Positions 13,688-24,884 of a stretch of DNA of 25,233 nt are shown in pieces. The first letter of the stretch is position 1, and each line of letters begins with the position of its first letter. The translations under genes were made by a program, and so were the position numbers. The stretch lies in the UHGV virus genome UHGV-0079576. One strand, 5' to 3'. The stretch is from a virus. Below the pieces are notes generated by a model. The model did no database searches, was not told the DNA's origin, and saw nothing but the letters and a program-made list of their open reading frames with translations.

Positions 13688-14576
13688 TCTGTCCGCGATA
13701 CCGGTACCGGATGCTGTGGAAGTGCCGGATACCGCAATGCTCGTCTCTCAGATAGTGGCGAAGTATCAGGAGGTGGATACGTTGTTTTCAGCACTGGTGG
13801 AATCTGATCCTGCTTATAAATGGGCGGAGGCACTGGCTTTTCGGGTGGCGCTGATGCGCCAGCAAATAAATGATGCAGTTCGTGCAGTACTGCTTGCCAG
13901 TGCCGGTGGGAACGATCTGGATCAGGTTGGCGCGAATTATCAGGTACAGCGGCTGGTAATTACCCCTGCAGACGACAGCACCATTCCGCCCACGCCGGCG
14001 GTGTATGAAGATGATGACGCCTTTCGCGAACGCATTCAGTTGTCATGGGCACGGCTCAGCACCGCTGGCGCGAAAAATGCGTACCACTATTTTGCACAAA
14101 GTGCTGATCCTGATGTGCTGGATGTGAAAGCCTACGGGCCGGAAACGCATTCGCAGGAAGGGCGGGTTTTTCTTTATGTGTTATCCCGGTCAGGAAATGG
14201 CACCGCATCACAACCCCTGCTGGATAAGGTGGCAGCATCAGTCAGTGATGATGAAACCCGTCCCCTGACGGATTTTGTCAGTGTCCGGGCGGCAGAAATT
14301 ATTCCCTACGACGTGGTGGCGAATATTCATATTCCCTACGGACTGGATGGTGAACTGGTAATGGCAAATGCCCGTAAGGCGCTGCAGTCTTACACTGACA
14401 GTGTCCACAGGATTGGTTCAGTGGCATCCCGTTCCGGCATGGATGGTGCACTGCACCAGACCGGGGTGATTACGGTGAATCTGACCTCTCCTGCCAGTGA
14501 TATCGTTCCTGCGATGGGGCAGGCACCGTGGTGCCGTAAGGTAACACTGAACAAGGTGGAGACAACCGATGAATGA
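13668..14576 (+). CDS. J: Baseplate assembly protein (P2 gpJ-like)
   Basis: Collinear with P2 J (AIIDLSAIPVPDAV…LLASAGGNDLDQVGANYQVQRLVITPADDSTIPPTPAV…); ATG at 13668 (track start is TTG 13662). Confidence 0.9.
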   Translation: MSQAIIDLSAIPVPDAVEVPDTAMLVSQIVAKYQEVDTLFSALVESDPAYKWAEALAFRVALMRQQINDAVRAVLLASAGGNDLDQVGANYQVQRLVITPADDSTIPPTPAVYEDDDAFRERIQLSWARLSTAGAKNAYHYFAQSADPDVLDVKAYGPETHSQEGRVFLYVLSRSGNGTASQPLLDKVAASVSDDETRPLTDFVSVRAAEIIPYDVVANIHIPYGLDGELVMANARKALQSYTDSVHRIGSVASRSGMDGALHQTGVITVNLTSPASDIVPAMGQAPWCRKVTLNKVETTDE

Positions 14577-16980
14577 CGATATCAGGAGCATACTGCCGAT
14601 CAATGCCAGCCGGGCAGAGCGGGTGGTGGACTGTGTCGCCGGAGATATGTTGGCAGACATAGCTGTCTGTCTGATCCGCTATGTGAAAAATCCCGATTTA
14701 TGTCCTGCTGAATTGCTGCCATGGCTGGCCTGGGAAATGGCAGTAGATACCTGGAATGAACACTGGACGGAGGTGGAAAAACGTTCTGCTATAAAGCGTG
14801 CCGCCTATATCCATCGCCACAGAGGGACTAAAGCGGCGCTGATGGCGTCGCTGGCTGACAGTCCGTTCCGGTCGCAGATTGTGGAATGGTATGAGCAGAC
14901 GCCGCCTGGTGATCCCTATACCTTCCGGTTGAATGTGGAGCAGAAGGACTTGCCTGTCCTGATGAGTGACCACCAGGATCTGAAACATGCCGTATTACGT
15001 GCCAAAAATCTGCGTAGCTGGTTCAGTATTCATGTTTATGGGGGCTGCCAGGGGAACGGATACAGCTATGGGTATGTGACAGCGACGGAAAAGATGAAAA
15101 ACAGGATACTGCCGTCAGAAATACAGTTGTCATCAGACAACTTACGACTGGCCCCTGGAGACGTTGTTTCTGTGCAGGTGACGGTGCTACCACTGATTGC
15201 TGATTCCCGCGTATTTTCTGTACAAATCGAAAATGACAGTGTGGCCGCGATAAGTGTTTCTGGTGATGTGGTTACTCTGACAGGGAAACAGTCTGGTCGA
15301 ACTACAGTCGTCGTATCAACGGTAAATGGAGTGGTTGCCAGACTGCCGGTAAGTGTTGTGTCGGTTGTTCAGGTTATTATCCGGGCAGATAACGCCAGCA
15401 TGCCACTGTTTTTTATCGATCCCCAGGATAACGACTTCACTATTGATTATGGTGATGGACTGGACAGCAGAGATTATGTGATTAAGGAGGATGTGGTCAA
15501 AGCTACCCGCACATTGCCGGTCGGAGAAGAAATTACACTGACGATTAAGGGCGCGGAAAGTCTGACATTCTACACCCCGAAGGCAGTAAACAACACCAAT
15601 CCACTCCTGGAGATCATCCGCGTCAGTGGTTCCAGAAAAGACATGTCGTGGTTTGCGAATCTGCAGTGGGCATTGCGAAAAATTCACGCAGGTTCTTTTG
15701 ATAATCTGCCTCACGTACTTTCATTTGAGAATGCCTTTAGGGGGTGTTCGTCTCTTCATGAATTACCTGAAAATCTTTTTGCCAGGTGCGAAGCTGTGGT
15801 GAATTGGTCTGGTGTATTCTATGGGTGCTCTGCCCTGACAGACATCCCACATTTATTTGCGACAAAATCAAGCGCGAACATACTTTCAAAACTGTTTTGT
15901 GGCTGTTCGGAGATCGTCCGGGTCCCGGAGACATTATTCGCTGGTATGGAGAATGCATTGACTTTTGAAAATGCTTTTTCCGGGTGTGAGAAGATGGTTA
16001 ATGCCCCCGCTATTCCAGCTCACAGACTTCAGAATTTTTACAGGGCGTTTTCTGGGTGTTGTAATCTTGCGGAACTCCCGGCGATATTTGGGGAGCAGAA
16101 CGAAAACGACGCATCATCAATTGATTTGTCCTGTGCGTTTTATGGTTGCCGAACACTGACAACCATTCCCGGTGGCTGGGCGGATGTTATCAGAAGCAGA
16201 ATTGCGCATATTGATGGCATATTTAATGAGTGTGACAGTATACGCAGTATACCTGCGCGATTGTTTTCTGGAGCAGATAAGCTTCGTTCTGCTAATAATG
16301 CGTTTTACAACTGCCACAGTATTACCCATGTTGGCGATGGTTTATTCGAGGGATGTCAGAAGCTGACAGGGATAAACGGGGTGTTTTATAACTGCAAATC
16401 ACTGGAAAGCATTGGTGACAGACTTTTTTCCGGGTGTGTGTCAGTTAAATCGGCATCAGAAACGTTTGCTAACTGTAATATTTCGACTGAGATCGGTGAA
16501 GGGACTTTTTCTGGTTGTACATCTCTGATATCAATGAATTCCGTTTTTGCAAATTGCAGAAAACTTATTATGTTACCGGCTGACACATTCAGAGGATGTA
16601 TTTCGCTGAAAGATGTGTCTTATATTTTTTCGAATTGCAATGCATTAACAAAGATTCAGGGGGAACTATTTGCAGACTGCCCACTTACCGTGAGCAGAGG
16701 CATGTTCAGATGGTGTTCGTCATTGATTAAGGTTCCTTGTGGGGTGATTAATCATCGGGAAAGTAGTGTCGACATGACCGAAATGTTTCGTGAGTGCACA
16801 TTATTGGCAATGGACATTAATGATATATTCCCGGATGTGTTTGCTGAAAAATGCAATCTGTCATATTTGTTTTTCCAGTGCAGCAATGTAACAGGCAGTA
16901 AGTCAGAATTTATGGCAAAGTTTCCGGATCCGGTATCTGTTGCTAATGCGTTTAATTATTGTTCGTTACTTACAGACTGA
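14569..16980 (+). CDS. I: Baseplate protein gpI fused to a C-terminal Ig-like (Big_2-type) domain and a long Cys-containing leucine-rich-repeat (BspA-like) domain; 803 aa
   Basis: First ~175 aa collinear with P2 gpI (…NPDLCPAELLPWLAWEMAVDTWNEHWTEVEKRSAIKRAAYIHRHRGTKAA…PPGDPYTFRLNV…); then an Ig-like beta-rich segment (VVSVQVTVLPL…VTLTGKQSGRTTVVVSTVNGVV); from ~15720 about 20 repeats of F-x-G-C-x-x-L-x-x-I/V-P; single uninterrupted ORF. Confidence 0.85.
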   Translation: MNDDIRSILPINASRAERVVDCVAGDMLADIAVCLIRYVKNPDLCPAELLPWLAWEMAVDTWNEHWTEVEKRSAIKRAAYIHRHRGTKAALMASLADSPFRSQIVEWYEQTPPGDPYTFRLNVEQKDLPVLMSDHQDLKHAVLRAKNLRSWFSIHVYGGCQGNGYSYGYVTATEKMKNRILPSEIQLSSDNLRLAPGDVVSVQVTVLPLIADSRVFSVQIENDSVAAISVSGDVVTLTGKQSGRTTVVVSTVNGVVARLPVSVVSVVQVIIRADNASMPLFFIDPQDNDFTIDYGDGLDSRDYVIKEDVVKATRTLPVGEEITLTIKGAESLTFYTPKAVNNTNPLLEIIRVSGSRKDMSWFANLQWALRKIHAGSFDNLPHVLSFENAFRGCSSLHELPENLFARCEAVVNWSGVFYGCSALTDIPHLFATKSSANILSKLFCGCSEIVRVPETLFAGMENALTFENAFSGCEKMVNAPAIPAHRLQNFYRAFSGCCNLAELPAIFGEQNENDASSIDLSCAFYGCRTLTTIPGGWADVIRSRIAHIDGIFNECDSIRSIPARLFSGADKLRSANNAFYNCHSITHVGDGLFEGCQKLTGINGVFYNCKSLESIGDRLFSGCVSVKSASETFANCNISTEIGEGTFSGCTSLISMNSVFANCRKLIMLPADTFRGCISLKDVSYIFSNCNALTKIQGELFADCPLTVSRGMFRWCSSLIKVPCGVINHRESSVDMTEMFRECTLLAMDINDIFPDVFAEKCNLSYLFFQCSNVTGSKSEFMAKFPDPVSVANAFNYCSLLTD

Positions 16981-18984: not shown

Positions 18985-20460
18985 ATGTCCGGATTACATG
19001 GTGTTGAAACCATTGAACTGACGACAGGCACGGTTGCCGTGCAGACCATCTCCACGGCTGTAATTGGCCTGGTGGGGACCGCGCCGGACGCCTCCGGTGG
19101 TGTGTGTGCTTCCGGTACAGCCGGTTCGTGGCTGCTGGGAACGGCGCTGGATTTTACGGCGAAACAGGAAGGTAGGGCTGGCAATAATATTTCGGTTGTT
19201 GCTGTCGCTGCCACAAAGCAAAGCGCGCAGACAGCGGCTTCGCTGGAAGGTTCGACCCTGATGATAACGCTGGGTACGGATGAACGCAGCCAGGTTAACA
19301 CCACGGTGGCTTGTGTGATTGAGGTGGTGAATGCACTGGGTGATTCGCCAGTGACAGTGGCGGTCAGTCCACTGAATGCAGAGGGTGCAGAAAATAATGT
19401 GGTGTCGCCGTTCAGTCTGACCTTATCCGGCGGAGAGGATGAGGCGTTTCCGGTTAATACACCGGTGGTGGTGGCGGGGGCGTTAACTCAGGCCGGGAAA
19501 CTGGGCGCAGCCGGGACATTATATCCGGCCCTGCGTGATATTTTTGACCAGACAGGTGCGCTGGTGATTGTGGTGCGTGCGGAAAGCAAAACGAAGGCAA
19601 AGGAAGCAGAACAGCGCGCGGCAGTCATTCGGGCAATGGAAGCCCTGATGGAAAGCAAAGGAAAAACGGGCTACCAGCCGCGCATTCTTATCGCTACTGG
19701 TTACAGTGAGGATGATGGCGTGGCAAAGGCGCTGGAAACGTACGCAGCGAAGTTACGGGCCGTGGCCTATATAGACTCCCCCTCAATGGCAACGCCGCAG
19801 GATGTGGTTCAGCGACGTGCGTCCTTTGGCGGGCGTGTGGAGCTGCTGCGTCCGCGCGTGTCAGTGATGGATGACAGCGGGCAGACGGTATTTCGTCCGT
19901 ATTCAGCACGAGCTGCAGGGCTACGTGCCCGTATTGATTACGAAAAAGGATGGTGGTGGTCCAAGTCAAACCAGGACGTGATGAATATCACTGGACTGGA
20001 GCAGGTTGACACATTTATTCTCGGAGAGCAGAACTGCACAGTAAACCTGCTGAACATGGAAAATATCTCCACCATTATTCGCCACGACGGTTTTAAACAC
20101 TGGGGGAACCGTCTGTGCTCATCCCACAGTCAGTGGCGTTTTGAGCCGGTACGCCGTACAGCAGATGTGATTGAAGACAGCATTCAGGAGGCCATGCTGC
20201 CTTATGTCGATCGGCCGCTTGATCGGGATGTGGCAGAAGACATTCTTGGCAGTATTAATGCCTATATGCGCCAGCTTAAAAATCTGGGCGCGATCCACGG
20301 AGGCAGTGCCTGGCTGAATGATGAACTGAATACAGCAGAAACCCTGGCGGCAGGGCAGTTGTATATTGATTATGACTTTGGGCCGAAGTCACCACTGGAG
20401 CGTCTGACACTGCGGGCGATGATTAACAATAAACTGGCGCTGGAGGAGCTGACAGTATGA
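18985..20460 (+). CDS. FI: Tail sheath protein (P2 FI-like)
   Basis: ATG at 18985 with GGGAG 6 nt upstream, downstream of the terminator; collinear with P2 FI (MSGLHGVETIEL…AVIGLVGTA…RARIDYEKGWW…TIIRHDGFKHWGNR…AGQLYIDYDFGPKSPLERLTLR); track start 18937 lies upstream of the terminator. Confidence 0.95.
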   Translation: MSGLHGVETIELTTGTVAVQTISTAVIGLVGTAPDASGGVCASGTAGSWLLGTALDFTAKQEGRAGNNISVVAVAATKQSAQTAASLEGSTLMITLGTDERSQVNTTVACVIEVVNALGDSPVTVAVSPLNAEGAENNVVSPFSLTLSGGEDEAFPVNTPVVVAGALTQAGKLGAAGTLYPALRDIFDQTGALVIVVRAESKTKAKEAEQRAAVIRAMEALMESKGKTGYQPRILIATGYSEDDGVAKALETYAAKLRAVAYIDSPSMATPQDVVQRRASFGGRVELLRPRVSVMDDSGQTVFRPYSARAAGLRARIDYEKGWWWSKSNQDVMNITGLEQVDTFILGEQNCTVNLLNMENISTIIRHDGFKHWGNRLCSSHSQWRFEPVRRTADVIEDSIQEAMLPYVDRPLDRDVAEDILGSINAYMRQLKNLGAIHGGSAWLNDELNTAETLAAGQLYIDYDFGPKSPLERLTLRAMINNKLALEELTV

Positions 20461-20975
20461 TTACGGGTGAAAAAAAACTGTTGCGCGCGTGGGCGTTATT
20501 TCTTCCTGGCGGGATCCGTCTTCAGGGGGCACATGAATACACGCCGCCTGCCATTAATATCACGACAGTGGATATCAAAACCGGCGCAATGGATGCACCG
20601 GTAGCAGTGGATGATGGCATGGAAGCACTGACCTGCTCATTTAAAATTTATGGCTACGATGTTGCCATGCTGACTCTGCTGGGGTTGCAGGCTGGACTTT
20701 ATTCACCGGAGATCGTTGTTCGTCAGGCTTACCGGGTGGGGAATGCGACCAGCGGACAGGTGGAAACCCTGCAGGGGATGATCACCAGTATCACCCCGGA
20801 TGCGCGCCCGGCAACATCACAGGCTGAGGCTTCGGTGACGGTGGAAATGTCACTGAGTTATTACCGTCAGGCTGTCGACGGTCTGGAAACCATCTGCATT
20901 ATTCCGGAGGAATTTGTGCGTCGTATTAACGGCGTTAATGTTCTGTCGGATCTGAAAAAAATTATCCGGGTTTAA
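20457..20975 (+). CDS. FII: Tail tube protein (P2 FII / Mu-type tube family)
   Basis: 172 aa directly after the sheath gene (ATGA overlap); size and position as a myophage tube. Confidence 0.8.
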   Translation: MITGEKKLLRAWALFLPGGIRLQGAHEYTPPAINITTVDIKTGAMDAPVAVDDGMEALTCSFKIYGYDVAMLTLLGLQAGLYSPEIVVRQAYRVGNATSGQVETLQGMITSITPDARPATSQAEASVTVEMSLSYYRQAVDGLETICIIPEEFVRRINGVNVLSDLKKIIRV

Positions 20976-20994: not shown

Positions 20995-21022
20995 AGGCGG
21001 CTCAGGCCGCCTTTTCTTTTTT
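20995..21022 (+). terminator. Intrinsic terminator between tube gene and tail chaperone gene
   Basis: Stem aggcggc(20995-21001)/gccgcct(21006-21012), loop tcag, then ttttctttttt. Confidence 0.6.
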
Positions 21023-21036
21023 AAAAGGAGACGATT

Positions 21037-21339
21037 ATGTCGGAAAAAAACAGTGTTCCCGCCAGCAGTGTGGAAATTGTGTTATCCGTGCCGTATGTCA
21101 CCGCATCAGGACAGACGATCACGCATGTCACCATGCGTGCGCCTACCGTCCGCGATCGTCTGTTGCATCGCCGGAGTACCAAACCGGAAGCAGAGGCTGA
21201 TCTGGATATGATTGCCGGTCTGTGCGGGATGGACGCGGCGGACATGATGAACATGGAAGCGTGTGATTACCTGACCCTGGAGCGGCAGTTCAATGTTTTT
21301 TTGCTGCCGCCGGTCCGGCGGAAGAAGAAAGCATCCTGA
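21037..21339 (+). CDS. E: Tail assembly chaperone (P2 gpE-like), zero-frame product
   Basis: 100 aa; AAGGAG RBS; position between tube and tape measure; contains slippery heptamer near its 3' end. Confidence 0.7.
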   Translation: MSEKNSVPASSVEIVLSVPYVTASGQTITHVTMRAPTVRDRLLHRRSTKPEAEADLDMIAGLCGMDAADMMNMEACDYLTLERQFNVFLLPPVRRKKKAS

Positions 21340-21476
21340 CGGCGATACGGCGCGCCGGTGCCTGGTTCGGGTGGTCTCCGGGAGATGTGATGGCGCTGCC
21401 GTATACGGATTTTGTGGCAATGATGCTGGCGGAGTCGGAAGAGAGGAAGCGATGTTATGGCAACGGTGGGCGATAA
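21037..21476 (+). CDS. E': Frameshift-extended chaperone (P2 E+E'-like) by programmed -1 frameshift at T-TTT-TTG (21297-21303)
   Basis: Heptamer T TTT TTG in the E frame; the -1 frame is open from 21303 to stop TAA 21474-21476, overlapping the tape-measure start; GC-rich palindrome ccgccgg/ccggcgg (21307-21321) begins 4 nt downstream. Confidence 0.55.
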
Positions 21477-23109
21477 CCTTAAAGCGAATATCCGGATCGG
21501 AGGTTCGATAGATCCGTCGTGGAAAAAATCGGTTGATGGACTGAAGCACGGATTATCAGGGGCAACACAGGAAGTGGCTCGCCTGACACGCCAGCAGGAC
21601 GTACTGAAACGAAAAATTCAGGCTGGTGTACTGGCAGGACAGGATATTACCGAACTGCGAAAGCAGTATGAAAAGCTGGGCAGAAAAATTCATGATGCCA
21701 CCGGGGAACAGGATAAATTTAACCGTAAGCTGGCGCGGGCAGAACGTCTGGAACGCTGGAAAGGACGGGCCGGGACGGTTCTTAAAACCGGGCTGGGGCT
21801 TTCGGTTGGTTCCGGACTGACGCTGGCAGCCGGTGCCGGCGCGGTACTGAACCGGAATGCGGAAACGGCAGAGCGGTCAGGGATAGCCCGGAGTTACGGG
21901 GTGGATTATGAAACCTATGCGGCGTGGGATTCACTGGGCCGGCAGATGGGGTTAAACGGCGAAAACATCGGTGATCTGTTTGAGGAATACCGGAACAAGG
22001 TTTTTGACGATGATAATGGTGCCAAGGACAAAGGAGCCATTCAGGACGTATTCGGTAAACTTGGGCTGAAAGCGGGTGTAATGGTCGGAAAAAACAACCA
22101 GGAGCAGGTCGAGTTTTTGTTTGAACGCTTACTGCAGGTGGAGAATGAGCAGCAGGCTGCGGGGATGGCAGATGCGTTATTTGGTGGTGAAGCCAATAAA
22201 ATCCTGACCTGGATGCGTCTGTCAGGAAAGACCTTCCAGGAACTTATCAGTGAGCAGAAACGCTATAACCTGGTGACAAAGGAAGGGGCTGATGGCGCAG
22301 TTCAGGGGCATGTGGCGTTGTCAAATTTCCGTTATGTTCTGAGTTCTTCAATTGATGAAATCAGCGGACAGCTGGGTAATGAACTTGCTCCACATATTCA
22401 ACAGGTGACGGATGACCTTGCGGCCTGGTTTAAGAATGGTGGGCTGGAAAAAATCCGGGCATTTATCCGTGATGATGCCCTGCCGGCGCTGATCGACATG
22501 GCTGCGTGGATGTGGAAATTTGGAAAAGTTCTTGCCGGAATAACGCAGAAAGCCATTGAGTGGGGGCTGGCGGATGATCCGCGAGAGGACCGACGAGAAG
22601 TGCTGGAATATCTGGCAAAAATGGGGTCGCCGGAGCTGGCGAGAGCGGTAGCGCAGAAAAACGGTCAGGGGGAGTGGTTTGATGAACTGCTCAGGCAAAA
22701 TCCGGAGCTGACGAAACAGGTTGTACAGGCCTATAAAGACACTCGCGGTTATCTCCCCTGGAATCATGATGATAAAAAGTTTGATGCTTTTCTCGACCCT
22801 TTGTTGGGGCCGAAAGAAGAACCTGATTTTAAGGCGATAAAAGAGAAATCCCGCACCTACATTGACGGACTTCCTGCAGCAGATCATGGGCAGGGTAATT
22901 CGGACCCTCTCTCGGCTCTTCAGTATACCCCCGGCAATATCAGCCAGGTGGAAGTAAAACCCACGTATCAGATACGAGCGGAATTTAACATCACCCAGAA
23001 GCCCGACGAGGATGCCGGACAACTGGCAGACAGGGTAATGAGAAATCTGGGAGATATTAATTTTGGTCAGCGTTCCCGCATGACCGATGGTGATGCATTC
23101 TGGGGGTGA
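21457..23109 (+). CDS. T: Tail tape measure protein (P2 gpT-like)
   Basis: 550 aa, coiled-coil-rich N-terminus, Gly/Ala-rich hydrophobic segment (TGLGLSVGSGLTLAAGAGAV); position after E/E'. Confidence 0.9.
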   Translation: MATVGDNLKANIRIGGSIDPSWKKSVDGLKHGLSGATQEVARLTRQQDVLKRKIQAGVLAGQDITELRKQYEKLGRKIHDATGEQDKFNRKLARAERLERWKGRAGTVLKTGLGLSVGSGLTLAAGAGAVLNRNAETAERSGIARSYGVDYETYAAWDSLGRQMGLNGENIGDLFEEYRNKVFDDDNGAKDKGAIQDVFGKLGLKAGVMVGKNNQEQVEFLFERLLQVENEQQAAGMADALFGGEANKILTWMRLSGKTFQELISEQKRYNLVTKEGADGAVQGHVALSNFRYVLSSSIDEISGQLGNELAPHIQQVTDDLAAWFKNGGLEKIRAFIRDDALPALIDMAAWMWKFGKVLAGITQKAIEWGLADDPREDRREVLEYLAKMGSPELARAVAQKNGQGEWFDELLRQNPELTKQVVQAYKDTRGYLPWNHDDKKFDAFLDPLLGPKEEPDFKAIKEKSRTYIDGLPAADHGQGNSDPLSALQYTPGNISQVEVKPTYQIRAEFNITQKPDEDAGQLADRVMRNLGDINFGQRSRMTDGDAFWG

Positions 23110-23793: not shown

Positions 23794-24884
23794 ATGAATA
23801 TCAGCCTGATTTCAGTCTGACAGCGGAAGGTAATGATATCACAAAGGCCATAAAGCGGGGGCTGGCAGAACTGCGTTATACCGATAATGGTGCGGCCACA
23901 AAGCGATCCGATGAACTGATGGTAACGCTGTTCAGCGAGACGATGGCGCTACCTCCGAAAGGTGCGGTATTAACGCTGGGGCTGGGATTTAATGGAAATC
24001 TGGTAAATAAAGGCAGCTTTACCGTCTGTCAGGTGGCAAGCGGTGGCCCTCCCCGCCGGATCACCATTTATGCCACCGCAGCCCCCATGAATGCGTCCAG
24101 ACATGGCGCGGATGTGACCGCACTGAAAACCCGCGCCTTCAGCGATATCACGCTGGGCGACCTGGTAAAAACCATCGCCACTGAAAATAATCTGGTGGCG
24201 CGGGTTTCACCATCGCTTGCTGATATTCGTATCTCCTGGGAGATGCAGTCGTCAGAATCAGACGCAGCCCTCCTGTCCCGGCTTGCAGGCGTGTATGGTG
24301 CCACCAGTAAACCGACGAACGGTTACTGGTTATTTCTGGAGTATGGTGCATCGCAGAGTACAGGCGGAAGAGATACCCCAGTGATGACCATCACACCGGA
24401 TATGGTGTCAGACTGGGATTACCGGGAGGGCGAACGACAGGGTGCTGCGGGTAGTGGGAAGGGAGACAAAAAGAATGGGAAAGTGGGTGTCCGATATTTT
24501 GATACCCGTGACGGACGCACACGAGAAGTTAAAGTGGATGTGGAGTCTACAGACAAGCGGCATCCGTTTACCCAGCCTGACCAGGGCACAGCAAAACACT
24601 GTGCAGACTCGAAAGTTAAACGCGTGCAGAGAGCCGGACGCCAGATGACGATAACGCTACCGTGCAGACCGGCACTGCTGAAAGCGGGAGCAGAGATGCG
24701 TTTTATCACGCAGGGGTTTGGAGTACGGGAAGATCATAACTGGCAGGCAGAGTCAGTGGAGTTTTCACTGGCACCAGGGCAGGGGTTTGCGCTGAATCTG
24801 TCGCTGGCTACCGATATTTCCGCGAAAGGGAAGGCCTCAGGGAAGAAGAAAGCGGATAAAAAGGGCGTGAATTATTTTGGTTAG
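23784..24884 (+). CDS. D: Tail protein D (P2 late control gene D-like)
   Basis: 366 aa; …LGDLVKTIATENNLVARVSPSLADIRISWEMQSSESDAALLSRLAG… parallels P2 D …LGAIVKAIATRNRLEASVAPSLAGIKIPHIDQSQESDAKFLTRLAE…. Confidence 0.85.
   Translation: MGLNEYQPDFSLTAEGNDITKAIKRGLAELRYTDNGAATKRSDELMVTLFSETMALPPKGAVLTLGLGFNGNLVNKGSFTVCQVASGGPPRRITIYATAAPMNASRHGADVTALKTRAFSDITLGDLVKTIATENNLVARVSPSLADIRISWEMQSSESDAALLSRLAGVYGATSKPTNGYWLFLEYGASQSTGGRDTPVMTITPDMVSDWDYREGERQGAAGSGKGDKKNGKVGVRYFDTRDGRTREVKVDVESTDKRHPFTQPDQGTAKHCADSKVKRVQRAGRQMTITLPCRPALLKAGAEMRFITQGFGVREDHNWQAESVEFSLAPGQGFALNLSLATDISAKGKASGKKKADKKGVNYFG

Follow-up and report, generated by a model that had tools for sequence, protein, structure and literature searches.

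The window, by which is meant the whole stretch of 25,233 nt analysed here, is an E. coli prophage. This prophage is temperate and of the myovirus type, and it combines lambda-like head genes (gpA terminase, lambda-family portal, S49 protease and capsid E) with P2-like genes for a contractile tail (baseplate J and I, fibre, sheath, tube, chaperone, tape measure, gpU, gpX and gpD); a search of NCBIfam returned no match for any product. The window is collinear with E. coli strains RSHH22 and SK6988 at 99.5%, strain M8 also matches, and the locus described below is present in 74 of 5,426 complete E. coli genomes. A DNA search of the phage collection with this locus gave no match, and the lineage is known only as prophages; at the protein level, its relatives among phages are distant, namely, Hafnia phage yong2, Citrobacter phage Chris1 and the Mu-like phages PhiKM and KP12.

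Three further features concern the tail module as a whole. The sheath ORF gives 507 aa from its first ATG (18937), and the start chosen by RefSeq in the M8 homologue lies 102 nt later (19039 in the window) and gives 473 aa. In M8, an IS66 element (tnpA/tnpB/tnpC; positions 1-1956 of locus L001) lies immediately upstream of the sheath gene, which corresponds to the region just upstream of 18937 in the window; this element is absent from the window, RSHH22 and SK6988. The P2 gpI-like baseplate protein (14569-16980, 803 aa) has a C-terminal BspA-type leucine-rich-repeat region (PF13306, PF13855) after its Tail_P2_I domain, a fusion that is unusual for a baseplate wedge protein and that may provide an extra receptor-binding module.

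The tail tube gene (20457-20975, plus strand; PF04985 Phage_tube, E 3e-22) lies directly upstream of the tail assembly chaperone gene, an E-like zero-frame ORF (21037-21339, plus strand) with a translation of 100 aa. Residues 14-89 of this product match PF10109 (Phage_TAC_7) with an E-value of 6.7e-12 and 45.7 bits against a cut-off of 25; this family is described as ‘tail assembly chaperone E/41/14’ (E, gp41 and gp14). The same product matches the tail protein family phrog_166 in PHROGs (E 2.7e-23), and RefSeq names its M8 counterpart ‘phage tail assembly protein’. On the other side is the gene for the tape-measure protein (21457-23109, plus strand; an ORF of 550 aa with its ATG at 21457), a candidate that matches phrog_3654 and, weakly, six tape-measure families of PHROGs and for which some E. 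coli relatives carry the annotation ‘phage tail tape measure protein’. Homologues of gpU, gpX and gpD follow downstream of it. The chaperone gene is thus placed, as in P2-type tail modules, between a contractile-tail tube gene and a tape-measure gene. Between the tube and chaperone genes is a terminator-like hairpin (20995-21022; AGGCGGCTCAGGCCGCCT then TTTCTTTTTT), which is kept in eight of eight E. coli relatives and which is possibly an attenuator that lowers the expression of the chaperone, the tape-measure protein and the distal tail proteins relative to that of the sheath and tube.

A slippery heptamer, T_TTT_TTG, occupies positions 21297-21303 (plus strand) of the chaperone gene, where it takes in the whole of codons Phe88 and Leu89 and, ahead of them, the final T of Val87. 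Position 21298 opens a zero-frame codon, which confirms the phasing, and the heptamer lies 12 codons before the chaperone stop in a run of seven T (21296-21302); its bases and phase are those given by the earlier note on this DNA. It is the proposed site of a tandem -1 slippage. A count over 26 plus-strand ORFs (7,422 codons) in the window gives 24 in-phase heptamers of the form XXXYYYZ, among which that at 21297-21303 has the longest open -1 run (57 codons, whereas 19 of the remaining 23 have at most 14), and it is one of only two for which the -1 frame extends beyond the zero-frame stop. The other is A_AAG_GGC at 24860-24866, six codons before the end of the gpD-like gene and with 24 open -1 codons; it is a poor slippery sequence, probably present by chance. 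A second in-phase heptamer within the chaperone gene, A_AAA_AAC (21045-21051, codons 3-5), was rejected: its 49 open -1 codons end inside the gene, it is lost in two relatives (L006 and L008), and its presence is probably fortuitous. A search of Rfam revealed no known frameshift element, the only match being a chance isrK-like one below the threshold.

The -1 frame is open from 21267 to a TAA at 21474-21476. Counted after the G re-read at 21303, it provides an E'-like extension (21303-21476, plus strand) of 57 sense codons plus the TAA, which falls 20 nt into the tape-measure gene, so that the earlier statement of a frame open for 57 codons and ending just inside that gene was correct. Joining 21037-21303 to 21303-21473 gives a predicted E+E'-like frameshift fusion (21037-21476, plus strand) of 146 aa, in which ...QFNVFL would be followed by the translation of the extension, AAAGPAEEESILTAIRRAGAWFGWSPGDVMALPYTDFVAMMLAESEERKRCYGNGGR, and for which the predicted tryptic junction peptide is QFNVFLAAAGPAEEESILTAIR. 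The extension is reachable only by frameshifting; there is no ATG, GTG or TTG in the -1 frame between 21267 and 21378, a span that covers most of its conserved part.

Database searches with the extension by itself gave no match in Pfam or PHROGs, and a PDB sequence search with the whole fusion gave nothing meaningful. When the extension was searched with HMMER against 1.8 billion predicted proteins, only a handful of short, mis-called fragments were recovered, and this near-absence is what would be expected of a frame that gene callers cannot reach; long, repetitive proteins that also appeared in the search were judged spurious because they match low-complexity parts. In the RefSeq records inspected, the 100-aa product is the only one annotated, with nothing in 21340-21456 apart from a 45-aa call in some relatives (see below). 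A +1-frame ORF (21293-21511, 72 aa, MFFCCRRSGG...), whose ATG immediately precedes the T run and which overlaps with the extension, was set aside as non-coding, the variable sites (21/6/6) falling on its first codon positions.

The coding status of the extension was assessed using a close set of eight E. coli relatives with 90-96% identity (nine sequences with the window, at 90-100%), whose alignment is free of indels all the way from the beginning of the chaperone gene to within the tape-measure gene. The -1 frame has 57 codons in all eight, so that no stop interrupts it in any close relative, and in one of them (L008), the zero-frame stop comes four codons earlier with the -1 frame untouched. 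Upstream of the heptamer, the variable columns are distributed 10/4/45 over zero-frame codon positions 1/2/3; in 21340-21456, the region that is ‘intergenic’ in RefSeq, they are distributed 6/6/21 over positions 1/2/3 of the -1 frame. This switch of the variable third position from the zero frame to the -1 frame indicates that the frame under purifying selection changes at the heptamer. On these comparisons, the -1 frame is coding and under purifying selection.

A more distant set of nine enterobacterial loci (eight distinct sequences), with a chaperone identity to that of the window of 51-83%, was obtained from Salmonella, Trabulsiella, Citrobacter, Cedecea, Dryocola and three metagenomic lineages. 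All of these loci have a homologous -1 extension of 54-64 aa that ends at the tape-measure start, and all of these extensions have in common the core RRxGAWFGWxPxEhhxhP..F....DE..ER. Their identity to the extension in the window is 37-61%, as compared with 51-83% for the N-terminal domain, and the two parts are about equally conserved. Both the heptamer and the -1 ORF, the conservation of which the earlier note had proposed to check, are kept in every relative examined in the two sets.

One explanation of this layout would do without recoding: the -1 ORF could be an independent small gene with an internal start or simply an open, non-coding spacer. In some E. coli relatives, the -1 frame indeed contains a 45-aa ORF that PGAP lists separately as a ‘hypothetical protein’, and in the window an SD-like GGGAG precedes GTG 21379 and ATG 21382 (21379-21384). 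However, the ATG behind the PGAP call is ACG in the window, and a start at 21382 would leave out the most conserved part, RRAGAWFGWSPG. There is no conserved start codon in the extension, that of Dryocola lacking any Met codon and that of Cedecea having its Met at a different position, and protein-level conservation starts directly at the heptamer in all lineages, while the third-position periodicity excludes a non-coding spacer. A small gene or spacer is, on this evidence, very improbable.

Another explanation is that the two frames are the remains of a decayed gene, or a sequencing artefact, in which what was once a single longer ORF has been split by a homopolymer indel in the T run. Homopolymers are prone to indels, and one short contig (L030, a 975-bp metagenomic read-assembly contig and the source of P0017) has T6 after an ATG together with several further frame breaks. 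This contig was set aside as uninformative, however, and 74 complete E. coli genomes have the two frames in this layout, as do the nine more distant loci (eight distinct sequences) and phage P2; both frames are under purifying selection. Decay or artefact is accordingly even harder to credit than an independent small gene or a spacer.

Relatives beyond these two sets show other arrangements. Hafnia phage yong2 (L029, about 2750-2935), the closest relative among isolated phages, has a homologous -1 extension, in place of which its record annotates a separate 39-aa ORF; at the degenerate site, GTT TTT ATG, there are just five T and a canonical heptamer is lacking, and a stronger SD-like sequence, GAGGAGG, lies some 10 nt upstream of it. 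Slippage in yong2 might involve the P site only. In Pseudomonas relatives of the chaperone (L013-L024, about 1690-1900 in each locus; 26-34% identity), a conserved extension of 37 aa (...LGFSxAEIMxMxxxDMxWWLTD) is in the +1 frame, and the zero frame ends in CTT TGA or TTT TGA in 10 of the 12 loci, which resembles the prfB +1 shift site, and in CTG TAA in two P. entomophila loci. In Escherichia phage PhiKM (L027) and Klebsiella phage KP12 (L028), the extension is at 2680-2900 and is annotated in neither record; this arrangement is consistent with the -2 shift that has been reported for Mu (PMC5009743).

The heptamer itself is unchanged in the eight E. coli relatives, among which GTTTTTTTG is invariant, and T_TTT_TTG or T_TTT_TTA is present at the homologous codon in all nine of the more distant loci (eight distinct sequences). 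In 12 aligned sequences, Phe88 is always TTT, and codon 87, which encodes V, A, D or N, nevertheless always ends in T (GTT, GCT, GAT or AAT); the other residues that are invariant across the 12 sequences have saturated synonymous sites, with 2-5 codons per residue. The constancy of Phe88 as TTT and of the final T of codon 87 points to selection on the heptamer itself.

A run of T could act at the level of transcription rather than translation. In that case, RNA polymerase would add one U at the T7 run (21296-21302), and the fusion would then be made by standard translation. The site is a homopolymer of seven T, a one-base insertion would open the same frame, and RNA polymerase is known to slip on A/T runs in bacteria (PMC5009743). 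In the well-documented bacterial cases of polymerase slippage, however, the runs are of about nine (PMC5009743), and here the run is only T6 in Trabulsiella, Dryocola, L031-L034 and P2, yet the phase T_TTT_TTR is always kept. Since phase matters for ribosomes only, its retention while the run varies between T6 and T7 argues for a ribosomal event and against polymerase slippage; moreover, the P2 event at the same heptamer has been described as translational (PMC3091744). Polymerase slippage is therefore very unlikely too, if somewhat less so than the two explanations considered above.

The reading that we prefer, and to which we give a probability of roughly 90%, is that ribosomes undergo a programmed -1 frameshift in the gene for the tail assembly chaperone, leading to a fusion of the E+E'/G-GT type. 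Most ribosomes would read 21037-21339 and produce the 100-aa chaperone, which is presumably the short, more abundant product. A minority would slip back by one base at the heptamer: with tRNA-Phe on UUU (21298-300) in the P site and tRNA-Leu on UUG (21301-303) in the A site, both tRNAs would re-pair on UUU UUU, and reading would resume at GCU (21303), so as to yield a minor fusion of 146 aa that ends at the TAA (21474-76). Tandem slippage of tRNA-Phe and tRNA-Leu on U_UUU_UUG is most likely, as opposed to slippage in the P site only; that slippage takes place, like its efficiency, is something we infer. By analogy with lambda G/GT and P2 E/E+E' (PMC5009743, PMC3091744), both products would bind and coat the tape-measure protein via their common N-terminal domain, and the domain encoded in the -1 frame would recruit the tube protein. 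By the same analogy, the slip frequency would set the ratio of the two products, neither of which would stay in the finished tail. Such a role of the two products in assembly is extrapolated from these two phages.

Programmed frameshifting is often helped by a stimulator, and the earlier note had proposed for this function a GC-rich palindrome beginning 4 nt downstream of the heptamer. The palindrome is real (21307-21321, plus strand; CCGCCGGTCCGGCGG, a perfect 7+1+7), and it starts at the fourth nucleotide, which leaves a spacer of 3 nt. The usual spacing between a heptamer and a 3' stimulatory structure is 5-9 nt, and with a spacer of 3 nt, a large part of the stem would already have entered the ribosome while the heptamer is being decoded. 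As RNA, the palindrome gives a hairpin of no more than 6 bp around a 3-nt loop, to which two flanking pairs are added. It folds with -11.4 kcal/mol (z = -2.0), as do or better 11 of 200 shuffled sequences, and longer windows around it contain no unusual structure (z +0.07 and +1.55). Across 10 lineages, 65% of the cells are paired, which is equalled by 121 of 500 shuffles. In the relatives, the palindrome decays to 2-4 bp without covariation, the inner pairs are mostly broken, and only the two outer C-G pairs are invariant across the 10 lineages; RNAalifold keeps three invariant pairs and no more. The conserved bases of the palindrome also encode conserved residues in both frames. Folding, shuffling and the alignment of the relatives likewise revealed no stable, conserved structure 5-9 nt downstream of the heptamer. 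Too close to the heptamer, barely better than shuffled sequences and not conserved, the palindrome is probably not a conserved stimulator, and that part of the earlier proposal is not supported. P2 and P2-like phages of Burkholderia have been reported to lack a 3' structure (PMC3091744).

A better candidate lies upstream. The sequence GGAG (21279-21282, plus strand), within the codons CTG GAG of Leu81-Glu82, is 14 nt 5' of the heptamer. Glu82 is encoded by GAG in 12 of 12 sequences and Leu81 by CTG in 11 of 12, unlike other invariant residues, for which 2-5 synonymous codons are used, and CTGGAG is seen in all lineages. The effective spacing for -1 stimulation by SD-like sequences has been reported to be 9-14 nt (PMC5009743), so that GGAG, with an SD core of only 4 nt, is at the outer edge of this range. 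Its conservation at the level of the codon suggests that GGAG is a candidate Shine-Dalgarno-like stimulator.

The locus is a hitherto unannotated case of the well-known chaperone frameshift device. It again confirms that long-tailed phages conserve the chaperone frameshift, and it changes no concept; its only mildly new point is the conservation of the upstream GGAG at the nucleotide level. Its value lies in annotation, since the fusion is missing from the RefSeq records inspected, which either leave 118 nt seemingly non-coding or call a spurious 45-aa protein.

The closest known system is that of P2, with its E/E+E' genes in the FETUD operon, where the order of the genes is the same: sheath, tube, chaperone, tape measure, U, (X) and D. 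Experiments have established the P2 shift (PMC3091744 and PMC5009743, which cite Christie 2002 and Xu 2004). The N-terminal domain of P2 E+E' also matches PF10109 (47.8 bits in the same model). The P2 heptamer, TTTTTTG, is at codon 84 of 91 as compared with codon 88 of 100 here, with heptamer and phase identical, and the -1 extension of P2 has 57 codons, which is equal to that of the window. The products are of 91 and 142 aa in P2 and of 100 and 146 aa in the window, and the fusions are collinear; the overlap between the stop and the tape-measure gene is 8 nt in P2 (with gene T) and 20 nt in the window. There are also differences: the pairwise similarity between P2 E+E' and the fusion of the window is not significant (BLASTP E 2.6), the head module of the window is lambda-like rather than P2-like, gpX lies between U and D in the window, unlike in P2, and the CTGGAG 14 nt upstream of the heptamer, which is conserved in the lineage of the window, is absent from P2.

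The similarity between the extensions themselves is faint. That of the window has no match to PF06528, the P2 GpE/E' domain, although five related extensions have sub-threshold matches to it that are in register (E 0.009-0.45; 10.5-16 bits against a cut-off of 23), and this is the only family that recurs. Using hhalign, a profile of 15 extensions aligned with P2 E' over the FxWxPxE core (P 6.4e-5, 64% probability). It is therefore likely, as far as profiles can tell, that the extension belongs to the E' domain family; here it is too divergent for PF06528, and a profile built from the extension alignment (A4) would widen detection.

The logic is also that of lambda G/GT, in which a chaperone gene between the genes for the major tail protein and the tape-measure protein undergoes a -1 slip near its 3' end, and in which, as proposed here, two products with a common N terminus are made in a fixed ratio (PMC5009743). 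Lambda is, however, a siphovirus, and neither its slippery sequence nor its G and T proteins have any sequence relationship to their counterparts in the window; moreover, the efficiency of the P2-type shift is reported to be 2-3 fold above that of lambda (PMC5009743). Only for P2 and lambda has it been established that the two products are both synthesised in vivo and both required to assemble tails (PMC3091744, PMC5009743). The earlier note had matched the locus to the chaperone frameshifts of both phages, and this match is upheld by the position of the gene, the PF10109 domain, the phase of the heptamer, the relatives and the identical layout in P2.

A third comparison is with E. coli dnaX, in which an internal SD-like element lies 5' of a heptamer of the form X_XXY_YYZ, a device that is possibly also used here. 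In dnaX, the heptamer is A_AAA_AAG, the SD is at 10 nt, and there is a strong, well-spaced 3' stem-loop, whereas the window has an SD core of just 4 nt at the limit of the range and a 3' hairpin that lies too near the heptamer and lacks conservation. It is conceivable, though on balance doubtful, that, unlike P2, which is believed to depend on its heptamer alone, this enterobacterial lineage also uses the conserved upstream GGAG as a dnaX-like stimulator, and that the PF10109 family then reaches its E'-like domain by three routes: a -1 shift here, a +1 shift at YTT_TGA in Pseudomonas tailocin-like loci and a +1/-2 shift in Mu-like phages. If this were true, the family would be a natural test set for the evolutionary exchange of the direction of the shift.
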